Assembly: GCA_003353955.1 (NCBI GenBank)
Contig: PIVJ01000004.1
Coordinates: 1,608-65,607, forward strand
DNA from: Bacteroidota bacterium
GTDB lineage: Bacteria; Bacteroidota; Bacteroidia; Bacteroidales; GCA-2711565
Length of the DNA: 64,000 bases
Direction: 5' to 3'
Below, in pieces: positions 60,523 through 63,318 of this stretch (position 1 is the stretch's first letter; every line of letters begins with the position of its first letter). The translations under genes were made by a program, and so were the position numbers. The notes under the pieces are model-generated. The model saw only the letters and a program-made list of their open reading frames with translations. It ran no database searches and had not been told where the DNA came from.

Positions 60523-63318
60523 ATGAAGACACGTGATCATTTTAAACTATTGGCATTTCTAGCCATTTATTTGATGCAAGGAATTAATACCTTAAATGCA
60601 CAGTCAAACGAAGATTGCATGATGTGCCATGAGGATCCTGATATGGTTATGGTAAGAAATGGGAAAGAAATTTCCGTATTTGTTAACTCTGATGTGTTAA
60701 GAAAATCCATTCATACAGACGCTGATTGTATAATGTGTCATGAAGATGTGAACACTGAAGAATATCTACACTCCGATGACAGCAAAAAACTTCAAAATGT
60801 AAACTGTGGCAATTGTCATACAAGTGCCGATATGGGATTTAACAAAGGTATCCATGGTTTGGCATTAAAGCAAAATGGGCCCTTTGCACCTAATTGTAAG
60901 GATTGTCATGGTAGTCATGATATTTTGTCGGGTAGGCAGCCTGAATCACGTACTTATAAAATGAACATCCCCTTATTATGTGGCAGTTGCCATAAAGAGG
61001 GAGCGCCGGTTGACAGAATGTATAATTTAACAGAGCAAAATATTCTTGAAAATTATAGTCAGGGTATCCATGGCAAGGGATTATATGAGAGTGGTTTGTT
61101 TGTTACCGCAACCTGTAACGACTGTCATGGGAATCACTTTATTTTACCTGCTTCTAGCAATTACTCCACTGTTTCTACCAATAGAATCGCAAGCACTTGT
61201 ATGAAGTGTCATGTGAGAATTGAAAAAACACATAAAAAGGTAATAAAAAGCGAACTATGGAAATCAGAGCCAGACGCAATACCCTCATGTACCGAATGTC
61301 ATCCACCACACAAAGTAGAATACCAGAAGATTAATGAAACCGTTTCAAATCAATCCTGCTTAAAATGTCACAATAAAGATATTTCGGCAGGCGAATATCT
61401 TTTAAAACAAACTGGTGATACCATTCGTTTCGACTTATCACATTTATCAAATTCTGTCCATTTTAATATTCAGTGTACTAAATGTCATACCGATGTATCG
61501 CCCAAATTACAGAGGCCATGTGAAACCGTTGAGCGTGTTGATTGTTCTAATTGCCACGTTGAAGTTTCAAATCAATATTTTGATAGCGGACATGGCCACG
61601 CATTTCTTGAAAATCTTAAGAATGCGCCCTATTGTACAAATTGTCATGATACGCATGCTACGAAATCAAAATTTGATCAAACTTCACCAACTTATAGAGG
61701 TAACATACCACAGCTTTGTGGTTCGTGTCATAAAGAAGACGGGCAAGCTAATATGCAAACGCAACTAAAAGAGGTAACTGCTTTTTCTGACTACTCGCAA
61801 AGTACACATGGAAAAGGATTGACTGATAAAGGCCTACTAATAAGTGCAGTTTGTACTGATTGTCATACAACGCATCATGAGTTAAAGGAGTCAGATCCTT
61901 TATCATCTGTGAATTCTCAGAATATGGCAGCTACTTGTGCGCAATGCCATACCAGTATTTATAACGACTATGTTTCGAGCGAACATTCTATTGCTGATAG
62001 TGATGGAATACTGATATATCCCACATGCTCAACATGCCATTCAGCACATCTTATTAGTGATATTCAAGGGGATCAATTTATGAATGAAATTACCAATCAA
62101 TGTGGTAGTTGCCATACAAAATTATCCGAGACCTATCAGGAAACGTATCACGGTAAAGCTTATTTATTGGGTGATATGGATGCGGCAAGATGTTCTGATT
62201 GCCATGGGGCTCATAAAATTTTAAAAGTTGATAATCCTGATTCTGAAGTTGGCTATAAAAATATTGTTCAAACCTGTAAACAATGTCATAGTAATGCAAC
62301 ACTTGCTTTTACGGGCTACTTAACGCACGCTACACATAATGACAATAAGGTTTTACATTGGGCATTTTGGGCAATGACCTCATTACTTATTTTTGTGTTT
62401 GGTTCTTTCGGACTCCACACACTGTTCTGGTTACCACAATCACTTAAGCAGAGAAAGAAAAAGAAACATGAGGCAGCTATCCCAGGCTCGAAAAAGTATT
62501 ATCGCCGATTTAATAAAAGGCAGCGATTTACACATCTAATGATTATTATAAGCTTTATTCTATTAGCTATAACTGGGATGACCTTAAAATTCGCACATAT
62601 GGATTGGGCAAATTGGATTGCCAAACTACTTGGGGGAGTTCATTCAGCAGGTAATATTCATAGAGTTGCTGCTGTTATTACCTTTGCATATTTTACTTTT
62701 CATTTGTTGACTTTGTTTCAACTTAAAAGTAAAGCCGGTGTGAGTACCAAGGAATTTCTGTTTGGGAAAAACTCTTTGATGTTCAGCATACAAGATATAA
62801 GAGATTTTACAGCTTCAATGAAGTGGTTTTTTGGCAAAGGACCTCGTCCCCACTATGGTCGTTGGACTTATTGGGAAAAATTTGATTATATGGCAGTATT
62901 TTGGGGAGTTGCTGTAATTGGGTTCTCCGGCTTAATATTATGGTTCCCTGAATTTTTCACATTGTTTTTCCCGGGATGGGTAATAAACGTAGCTCAAATT
63001 ATTCACAGTGATGAAGCATTATTGGCAACCGGATTTATATTCACAATTCATTTCTTTAATACACACCTAAGACCCGAATCTTTCCCAATGGACACTGTTA
63101 TTTTTACAGGACATGTTCCATTGGATGAATACAAAGAAGATAGAAAAGCCGAATATGATGAGCTTGTGAAATCAGGTAAATTAGATGATGTAGTAGTTGA
63201 AAAAGAATTTAGCAAAGCTTGGTTGAAAACGATAAAATTCTTTGGCTACTTATTCCTATCACTTGGTATAGCTATTGTTATTTTGATAATCTATTCTTTA
63301 CTTGTGGGCAAATATTAA
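60523..63318 (+). CDS. 19-haem c-type cytochrome fused to a C-terminal cytochrome b membrane domain
   Basis: Signal peptide from the ATG at 60523 and 19 CxxCH motifs counted up to about nt 62300. From about 62341 come TM helices with [19 protein letters not shown] and [22 protein letters not shown], paralogous to 59858-60478. Confidence 0.85.
   Translation: [931 protein letters not shown]

Follow-up and report, generated by a model that had tools for sequence, protein, structure and literature searches.

We found that a single gene in a 64,000-nucleotide stretch of DNA from an uncultured Bacteroidota bacterium (the window, meaning the whole stretch analysed) encodes a 19-haem cytochrome c domain fused to its own cytochrome b membrane domain. 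As a member of the CbcL/MtoC/MtrH family, the protein is probably a quinol:cytochrome c oxidoreductase of the inner membrane and would feed extracellular acceptors through its 19-haem chain. We infer its activity, the quinone type, the direction of electron flow and the partners from homology and gene context. The gene, its parts and its neighbours are collected in Table 1.

Table 1. The 19-haem gene, its parts and the neighbouring genes, in window positions.
Feature	Coordinates	Strand	Basis
Divergent CRP/FNR-family regulator	55165..55860	-	NCBIfam CRP/Fnr-type matches, all below cut-offs
Candidate outer-membrane module: 6-haem collagen-like lipoprotein, 1-haem lipoprotein, DUF5777 beta-barrel	56177..58725	+	Pfam/NCBIfam
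CbcA-like 7-haem cytochrome, C-terminal TM with His313	58885..59856	+	7 CxxCH; TM aa 292-322; fits published CbcA
CbcB/PhsC-like four-TM cytochrome b	59858..60478	+	PF01292, 87 bits; NCBIfam PhsC 169 bits, below cut-off 204
19-haem c::b fusion, whole gene	60523..63318	+	ORF, 19 CxxCH, Pfam domains, >110 orthologues with equal length and motif count
Sec signal peptide, aa 1-27 (...TLNA/QS)	60523..60603	+	Read from sequence; AF2 helix aa 5-21
N-terminal 8-haem extension, aa 28-275, haems 1-8	60604..61347	+	Self-alignment; 11-haem relatives start at ~aa 271
11-haem core, aa 276-609, haems 9-19	61348..62349	+	40-45% identity to 11-haem representatives
TM1, aa 610-637, with His632	62350..62433	+	Hydropathy; AF2 helix aa 609-647
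Lys/Arg-rich cytoplasmic loop (KQRKKKKHE...)	62434..62505	+	K+R excess, positive-inside rule
FdnI-type four-helix dihaem cytochrome b, TM2-TM5, His671/713/828/843	62506..63066	+	Pfam PF01292; profile; Foldseek
Cytoplasmic helical segment, TM5-TM6	63067..63222	+	AF2 secondary structure; aligns with FdnI C-terminal cytoplasmic tail
TM6, aa 901-931	63223..63315	+	Hydropathy; AF2 helix aa 898-928; family six-TM per PMC6295460
Secreted c554-like tetrahaem cytochrome, candidate periplasmic acceptor	63439..63927	+	4 CxxCH, signal sequence, PF13435

The open reading frame begins with an ATG and encodes 931 aa. A TTG start 5' of it, at 60511, is also listed; the ATG fits the lengths of the orthologues (926-936 aa). 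From the N-terminus the protein consists of a signal peptide, the 19 CxxCH motifs, a TM helix, a Lys-rich loop and the four-helix b domain, and it ends in a sixth TM helix. By sequence the signal peptide has a basic N-terminus, a hydrophobic core and an Ala-x-Ala-like site. The CxxCH motifs lie at aa 32, 69, 95, 125, 153, 198, 226, 256, 279, 318, 341, 371, 399, 444, 472, 502, 527, 557 and 585 (nt 60616-62289), so that the count of 19 between nt about 60620 and 62300 made in a first-pass annotation of this DNA was exact. These motifs contain 38 of the 39 cysteines of the protein, and when the protein was shuffled at its own composition the mean number of CxxCH was 0.10 (maximum 3). The same annotation had placed a TM helix from about 62341 followed by the Lys-rich loop KQRKKKKHE; both are present, with the helix starting at nt 62350.

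That a c domain and its own b domain share one polypeptide was likewise borne out, by the 19 CxxCH motifs together with matches to PF01292 and FdnI. Ni_hydr_CYTB (PF01292), the model proposed for checking the b part, matched aa 662-841 with 37.1 bits, above the cut-off of 30.1. A profile of the family matched 1kqf_C (E = 1.2e-11) and aligned FdnI His18/57/155/169 to His671/713/828/843. In the AF2 model (pLDDT 86) the only significant fold match was again FdnI 1kqf_C, with a Foldseek TM-score of 0.72. Hydropathy and AF2 place six TM helices at aa 610-637, 668-693, 715-733, 787-816, ~823-847 and 901-931. The last of these, TM6, is absent from the first-pass description. The predicted cytoplasmic loops carry 12, 10 and 8 K+R and the periplasmic loops 1 and 0; aa 638-667 hold 12 K+R against 1 D+E, which fits the positive-inside rule. 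His632 in TM1 is conserved in 84 of 85 sequences, and each of the five histidines (His632, His671, His713, His828 and His843) is kept in 84-85 of these 85 diverse members. The five are arranged with one each in TM1-3 and two in TM5, as published for CbcL.

The fused b domain has the FdnI fold, yet it is no FdnI orthologue. Escherichia coli FdnI (1KQF chain C) shares with it the four-helix dihaem b fold, the four aligned histidines and the N-in topology. However, FdnI, 217 aa long, is a subunit of its own, which receives its electrons from FdnGH and reduces menaquinone, whereas the domain described here has two extra TM helices and is fused to a cytochrome c chain. FdnI and HydC are separate subunits that accompany a periplasmic molybdo- or NiFe-enzyme; here the b domain is part of the 19-haem polypeptide, and no formate dehydrogenase or hydrogenase gene was found in the cluster.

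The protein combines an exported multi-CxxCH domain, a six-TM HydC/FdnI-like b domain, the five histidines and homology to the CbcL/MtoC/MtrH family, and we assign it from its sequence to that family of quinol oxidases/quinone reductases. At E <= 1e-30 the family comprises 958 clusters (50% identity). Geobacter sulfurreducens CbcL (GSU0274) shares the N-terminal periplasmic multihaem c domain and the six-TM HydC/FdnI-type dihaem b domain, and its one conserved histidine per TM1-3 and two in TM5 correspond to those seen here. All c-haems of purified CbcL are bis-His, a family trait found in the 19-haem protein at the sequence level only. The first-pass annotation saw the CbcL design with roughly twice the haems, and this held: CbcL has 619 aa and nine haems against 931 aa and 19 haems. 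The membrane-proximal haem spacing is 29-28-43-28 in CbcL and 30-25-30-28 in the 19-haem protein. CbcL is backed by genetics and biochemistry; it is required below about -0.1 V, has an Eapp of -194 mV and donates to PpcA. Nine-haem representatives with a Geobacter-CbcL-like haem layout aligned to aa 334-928 (35.6% identity, E = 6e-120), and the link to GSU0274 runs through these 9-haem intermediates and a published table, not through a direct alignment. In a profile search with seven 9-haem representatives none of the 120 close matches listed was named Geobacter or had the exact GSU0274 layout; the named ones among them were Desulfobacterales and Syntrophaceae.

MtoC/MtrH of Dechloromonas (Daro_1404), Gallionella (Galf_2006) and Rhodoferax (Rfer_4073) resemble the 19-haem protein in the spacing of their last haems (~31-25-30-28) and in their six TM helices. 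They differ in having 9 haems in ~655-673 aa and in lying beside MtoAB/MtrAB porin-cytochrome genes, which are absent at this locus. The membrane-proximal spacing of the 19-haem protein is closer to MtoC/MtrH and to 11-haem forms than to Geobacter CbcL.

The 19-haem form is not new, as proteins of this kind were already catalogued in a 2018 survey (Zhong & Shi, PMC6295460), which described family members with 3-23 haems and usually six TM helices. Since that survey tabulated 19-haem, six-TM members from Marinilabiliales and several other phyla, the novelty is lower than the first-pass annotation assumed. One of its entries, PLX02355.1 (C0595_11120, Marinilabiliales; Table S2), comes from another uncultured Bacteroidota bacterium and is 70% identical to the 19-haem protein (932 versus 931 aa), with its 19 CxxCH at the same positions plus one and its six TM helices at matching positions; it figures in the survey as a table entry only. 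The 19-haem form, its duplication and its gene context are not discussed there. Two EET-community papers contained nothing on the CbcL/MtoC/MtrH family, and we found no paper mentioning DUF5777. The Labilibaculum paper describes Mn oxide reduction by one Marinilabiliales isolate and draws no link to these genes.

We found that the haem domain is internally duplicated. In a self-alignment aa 62-285 matched aa 311-533 with 83 of 231 columns identical and a score of 383, while shuffles that kept the CxxCH positions fixed reached at most 172. The 11-haem relatives, representatives of which are 40-45% identical across haems 9-19 and the b domain, are collinear with the 19-haem protein only from about aa 271 on; among the matches listed, only 19 haems is a commoner count than 11. 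By these comparisons haems 9-19 form an 11-haem family core, and haems 1-8 are a diverged copy of the first eight of these, added at the N-terminus; the haems in excess of CbcL arose by internal duplication. The first-pass annotation was therefore right that the repeats align to one another and wrong about the repeat unit, which is an 8-haem block of ~250 aa and not a two-haem unit. Its recurring module, said to occur at least six times, had no match with the dots of the pattern taken at face value. The looser form H-x(12-24)-CxxCHxxH was found 7 times, and both peptides quoted as examples were located, one at aa 178 and the other at aa 424. A crude NJ tree points to a single main clade of 19-haem forms and to separate expansions to 17 and 22 haems.

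The c domain contains 19 invariant non-motif histidines for its 19 motifs and no conserved Met, and all 19 c-haems appear to be low-spin bis-His. Because of this, no haem would offer an open catalytic site. Neither sequence search, profile search nor Foldseek gave a significant solved relative of the c domain. The weak matches were generic multihaem proteins, among them HAO, NrfB, MtrC and a 278-aa 'cytochrome c' (28pb).

The two genes directly upstream are, as judged from their sequences, a CbcA/CbcB-like pair. As in Geobacter CbcBA, a 7-haem c with a histidine-bearing C-terminal TM accompanies a four-TM 'thiosulfate reductase-like' b, here in the gene order c then b. CbcBA is defined by a separate PhsC-like b and 7-haem c subunit, with the fourth b-haem histidine on the C-terminal helix of the c subunit; the upstream pair fits this and the 19-haem protein, a fusion in place of two polypeptides, does not. 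CbcBA homologues have been reported in Marinilabiliales, Prolixibacter and Labilibaculum. The fused b domain had been called paralogous to the upstream b gene. The two share just the Pfam family, resemble each other weakly (24% identity across 175 aa, E = 0.003) and belong to different subtypes. A recent duplication of the neighbouring b gene was rejected on this identity and on the subtypes, PhsC/CbcB against FdnI/CbcL.

The candidate outer-membrane module lies further upstream, and its gene order is conserved in Bacteroidota loci. In 36 of 82 loci the c554-like tetrahaem gene adjoins the 19-haem gene, and the CRP/FNR-family regulator is beside the cluster in 17 related loci. In relatives an ImcH-like gene (3 TM, CX3CH plus 6 CxxCH) is found just past the position at which the window ends, and genes for system II cytochrome c maturation follow downstream; in other phyla the ImcH-like gene is the commonest neighbour. 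Of the two parallel quinol modules pointed out earlier it can be said that several are real, that they are conserved in Bacteroidota, and that relatives add a third, the ImcH-like one. Promoter and terminator scans gave nothing above chance except one strong hairpin past the last gene.

From these features we read the following architecture. The Sec signal directs the 582-aa 19-haem domain to the periplasm, TM1 returns the chain to the cytoplasm and TM6 closes the protein. Within the TM2-TM5 bundle His713 and His828 hold the haem b on the periplasmic side and His671 and His843 that on the cytoplasmic side. Menaquinol would, by homology and context, be oxidised at the b domain, and electrons would run from haem b(C) via haem b(P) to haem 19 and on to haem 1. 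From there they would reach the periplasmic or outer-membrane proteins encoded in the cluster, among which we count the DUF5777 barrel, the 6-haem lipoprotein and the tetrahaem protein of c554 type, with extracellular electron acceptors as the final sink.

Electrons could also run the other way. On the model of the role proposed for MtoC in Fe(II) oxidisers, the protein would be a quinone reductase that takes up electrons from an outside source, be it Fe(II), a cathode or corroding iron, or a partner in syntrophy, and carries them through the 19 haems into the menaquinone pool. The family includes MtoC of Gallionella and Dechloromonas, its members may catalyse either direction, and no sequence feature was found to separate oxidising from reducing members (PMC6295460). 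The spacing of the last five haems, nearer to MtoC/MtrH than to Geobacter CbcL, also points this way. However, the cluster holds CbcA/CbcB-like genes, relatives hold ImcH-like genes, and ImcH homologues have been reported from Fe(III) reducers only. Furthermore, MtoA/MtoB-type genes were not found within the window, and some of the lineages that carry the gene are known to contain metal reducers (Melioribacter, Caldithrix, Marinilabiliales). We consider reverse flow unlikely.

It is very unlikely that the protein is instead a quinol dehydrogenase serving soluble periplasmic reductases, for example of nitrite, sulfur or selenium compounds, outside extracellular electron transfer. The model nearest to the neighbouring b gene is indeed that of the PhsC thiosulfate-reductase cytochrome b, NrfD/4Fe-4S genes lie ~5 kb downstream in locus L002, and the tetrahaem protein encoded downstream is similar to the cytochrome portion of a UshA-like selenoprotein model. 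However, the conserved core of the cluster contains no catalytic reductase gene, the lipoprotein cytochromes and the beta-barrel that are its conserved partners fit the outer membrane, and the apparent bis-His ligation of all 19 haems leaves no open catalytic site.

The fusion itself is widespread. All 19 CxxCH motifs are present in 111 of the 120 orthologues listed (59-90% identity); the other nine carry 18, and most of those are shorter. The conserved b-domain motif occurs in all but four of the 120, most of the four having a variant motif with the domain present. Nearly all of the 120, most of them from different samples, are a single ORF of 895-963 aa, which answers the question of whether orthologues are split. 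The genomes of at least 80 species, spread over more than 10 phyla, encode full-length 19-haem matches. Maribellus (sp. YY47, locus L025) and Draconibacterium are cultured carriers. Four independent run assemblies, of runs whose kind is unrecorded, none of them identifiable as RNA, and which were kept as contigs, reproduced 60400-63500 with zero differences, the junction included, and AF2 is confident across this junction (pLDDT 89-96 at aa 590-640). With orthologues, species genomes, run assemblies and model all in agreement, we reject as next to impossible an assembly or sequencing artefact in which a missed stop or frameshift joins what are really two genes.

Our data indicate that extended CbcL-type cytochromes are common beyond the model metal reducers, whereas the one studied form in the family is the 9-haem Geobacter protein. 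Neither 'formate dehydrogenase cytochrome b subunit' nor 'cytochrome c3 family protein' should be used for the gene, which is better annotated as a CbcL/MtoC-family multihaem cytochrome c::b fusion. The Bacteroidota cluster is compact and conserved, and brings together relatives of each of the three inner-membrane quinol oxidases of Geobacter with a candidate outer-membrane module. The 19-haem gene could serve as a marker of respiration on metals or electrodes among fermentative bacteria of sediments, and the long forms are a natural experiment on what extra haems provide in reach, charge storage or potential tuning. It is conceivable, though quite unlikely, that the added 8-haem block turns an 11-haem quinol oxidase into a membrane-anchored wire that touches the outer-membrane cytochrome/DUF5777 module directly. 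If extended, the chain might be ~15-20 nm long, an estimate taken from solved multihaem proteins and not from the AF2 model. Were the wire reading true, the chain could cross much of the periplasm, and Bacteroidota, Calditrichota, Ignavibacteriota, Acidobacteriota and others would export electrons from the quinone pool to the cell surface without needing a diffusible carrier in the periplasm. Lying side by side, the CbcBA-like, CbcL-like and ImcH-like genes would then form a single potential-tuned electron-export island.

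The 19-haem open reading frame encodes 931 amino acids and contains exactly 19 CxxCH motifs, as the first-pass annotation had counted, spanning residues 32-585 and holding 38 of the 39 cysteines. Residue-shuffled versions of the protein contained a mean of 0.10 and a maximum of 3 such motifs. Only five open reading frames in the 64-kb window bear CxxCH, all of them within 56-64 kb. A repeat is already visible in the motif spacing (37-26-30-28-45-28-30-23-39-23-30-28-45-28-30-25-30-28). In a local self-alignment scoring 383, 83 of 231 columns were identical between residues 62-285 (haems 2-9) and residues 311-533 (haems 10-17), while shuffles in which every CxxCH was held fixed reached at most 172. 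The recurring module described earlier was found in seven copies when written as H-x(12-24)-CxxCHxxH, but had no match when its dots were counted literally.

We found that the fusion of this haem chain to a cytochrome b domain is real. A search of 5.8 billion proteins listed 120 orthologues with 59-90% identity, nearly all of 895-963 residues. Nineteen motifs were present in 111 of these 120; the other nine have 18 motifs, are mostly shorter proteins and are probably cut at the N-terminus. In a species scan counting one genome each, more than 597 genomes contain a relative, and the best 80 each cover almost the whole query. Four separate runs of one sample yielded Logan contigs that reproduce 60400-63500 with no difference or gap.

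The last CxxCH motif is followed by TM1, a loop with 12 Lys/Arg, four helices and a last helix at residues 901-931. The predicted b domain in the same reading frame was confirmed by a Ni_hydr_CYTB match at residues 662-841, which exceeds the Pfam cut-off. A profile of 85 family members matched nearly the entire chain of E. coli FdnI (1kqf_C; E = 1.2e-11) and aligned FdnI His18, His57, His155 and His169, which in the published FdnI structure bind its two b-haems, to His671, His713, His828 and His843. Each of these four, and likewise His632 in TM1, is kept by 84-85 of the 85 diverse members, which reproduces the published five-histidine pattern of Geobacter CbcL. The AlphaFold2 model (mean pLDDT 86) exceeds 90 over the membrane domain and is weak only at residues 239-272; its only significant PDB fold match was FdnI (TM-score 0.72, normalised to FdnI). 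The loop charges fit a periplasmic c domain and a cytoplasmic Lys-rich loop, the same orientation as FdnI. Within the 19-haem group we found 19 invariant non-motif histidines, candidate sixth ligands, and no conserved methionine, so the sequences fit bis-His ligation of the c-haems throughout. CbcL's nine-haem domain, once purified, likewise showed only bis-His ligation.

A survey of homologues of Geobacter CbcL and MtoC/MtrH described members in 15 phyla, five of them in Bacteroidetes, with 3-23 haem motifs, 416-1034 residues and mostly six TM helices (Zhong & Shi 2018; PMC6295460). Its Table S2 includes PLX02355.1 (Marinilabiliales bacterium, C0595_11120), with 932 residues, six TM helices and 19 CxxCH at 33, 70, 96 ... 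586. This protein is our match P0037, 70% identical to the query, and its motif positions are those of the query plus one. This bears out the earlier reading of a c::b fusion on the CbcL principle. Since the table also holds 19-haem forms from Ignavibacteria, Gemmatimonadetes, Handelsmanbacteria, KSB1 and Solibacteraceae, the 19-haem subfamily was already catalogued in 2018, though discussed in no text, and the query is a new orthologue within it. Nine-haem representatives, whose spacing is nearly that tabulated for GSU0274 and which stand in for its sequence, matched residues 334-928 with 35.6% identity (E = 6e-120), about that reported between CbcL and MtoC/MtrH themselves (PMC6295460).

When 1.84 billion cluster representatives were searched exhaustively with HMMER, 958 clusters passed E <= 1e-30. 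The listings of this and the protein search together comprise 270 proteins, in which 19 haems is the most frequent count and 11 the next; some have 9, 13, 15, 17 or 22. The eleven-haem proteins are collinear end to end with haems 9-19 and the b domain (38-45% identity), and their c domains match haems 1-11 more weakly (29-32%). These alignments therefore indicate an 11-haem core to which a diverged copy of its own first eight haems has been added on the N-terminal side. The internal duplication proposed earlier thus stands, with this eight-haem block rather than a CxxCH pair as its unit. A crude neighbour-joining tree built on the membrane domain, with no bootstrap, places the 19-haem forms in nearly one clade and the 17- and 22-haem forms elsewhere, which suggests that haem blocks were gained repeatedly and independently. 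Matches P0124, P0126, P0139 and P0169, relatives outside the window, have 22 haems, with the entire 11-haem domain duplicated, or 17. The sole cysteine outside CxxCH, Cys333 (61519-61521), opens the core (RPCE). Of the 49 forms with at least 17 haems, 44 share it, and shorter relatives lack it; it might serve in His/Cys haem ligation or be a feature of the junction.

Features of the cytochrome cluster and related loci
Feature	Position	Strand	Remarks
CRP/FNR-family regulator	55165-55860	-	divergent from cluster
Six-CxxCH lipoprotein	56177-57253	+	collagen-like stretch; upstream of 19-haem gene
One-haem lipoprotein	57425-57835	+	weak LIC11213-family match
DUF5777 beta-barrel protein	57853-58725	+	252 bits; starts 17 nt past one-haem lipoprotein
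CbcA-like and CbcB/PhsC-like genes	58885-60478	+	1 nt apart
Neighbour b gene (second of pair)	59858-60478	+	closest model PhsC-type
19-haem gene	60523-63318	+
TM1 of 19-haem protein	aa 610-637
c554-like tetrahaem protein			secreted; downstream of 19-haem gene
Hairpin, 14 bp, strong, with T-run	63947-63977	-	window end
ImcH-like gene, L001	13389-14888	-	then ResB/CcsA genes
ImcH-like gene, L002	5236-6735	-	then ResB/CcsA genes

The neighbour b gene had been called a paralogue of the fused domain; the two share just 24% identity, and the closest model to the neighbour is of the PhsC type. The product of the preceding gene has seven CxxCH and, in its C-terminal TM helix, His313. This pair has the published architecture of Geobacter CbcA/CbcB, whose homologues were noted previously in Marinilabiliales, Prolixibacter and Labilibaculum. 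It forms a second quinol module immediately before the 19-haem gene. The gene order recurs in L001 (a 4-Mb genome), L002 (the closest contig) and about 15-20 Bacteroidota genomes, and extends past the window end to an ImcH-like gene and system II cytochrome c maturation genes. The ImcH-like protein has three TM helices, six CxxCH and a CX3CH at residue 129, as tabulated for GSU3259; in other phyla it is an ImcH-like gene that most often adjoins the 19-haem gene directly. The locus does hold several entry modules, but the two-module arrangement first seen as unusual becomes three in relatives and is conserved, since the ImcH-like gene follows in the recurring order. The terminal hairpin fits a convergent gene beyond the window.

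The six-CxxCH lipoprotein carries about 11 Gly-X-Y triplets between its lipobox cysteine and first haem motif, and such a collagen-like stalk is unusual for a multihaem cytochrome. It also matches the MtrC/MtrF domain II/IV model (42 bits) and has homologues in 22 related loci. The one-haem lipoprotein and DUF5777 genes are kept upstream of cbcA/B-like genes in Bacteroidota; we found no mention of DUF5777 in the literature searched. The two presumably resemble the fused Cyc2 cytochrome-porin divided into separate proteins. The regulator adjoins the cluster in 17 related loci and may therefore serve as a redox or anaerobiosis switch. Elsewhere in the window, G+C is 0.233 at 14001-16000 versus 0.31-0.39 in the remainder, 13978-14983 has no open reading frame of at least 150 residues, and a single tRNA gene (27317-27400, minus strand) is the only Rfam match.

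Bacteroidota use menaquinones, and the fused b domain would exchange electrons with menaquinone. Electrons would pass from the cytoplasm-side haem b(C) to the periplasm-side haem b(P) and on to the c-haem chain, with the periplasmic and outer-membrane cytochromes of the cluster as likely acceptors. We favour this outward direction, quinol oxidation serving extracellular acceptors, because the 19-haem gene accompanies ImcH-like and CbcBA-like genes and is found in lineages that include known metal reducers. Flow in the opposite sense, which has been proposed for MtoC, is possible, since the CbcL/MtoC/MtrH family has no sequence signature for direction (PMC6295460). The 19-haem protein is well formed, widespread and uncharacterised, and of modest interest. 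Its eight extra haems could extend its reach across the periplasm, store charge or tune its potential. We speculate that a quinone site placed, as in FdnI, close to the cytoplasm-side haem would make the favoured outward flow dissipate membrane potential instead of building it, which would suit low-potential acceptors.
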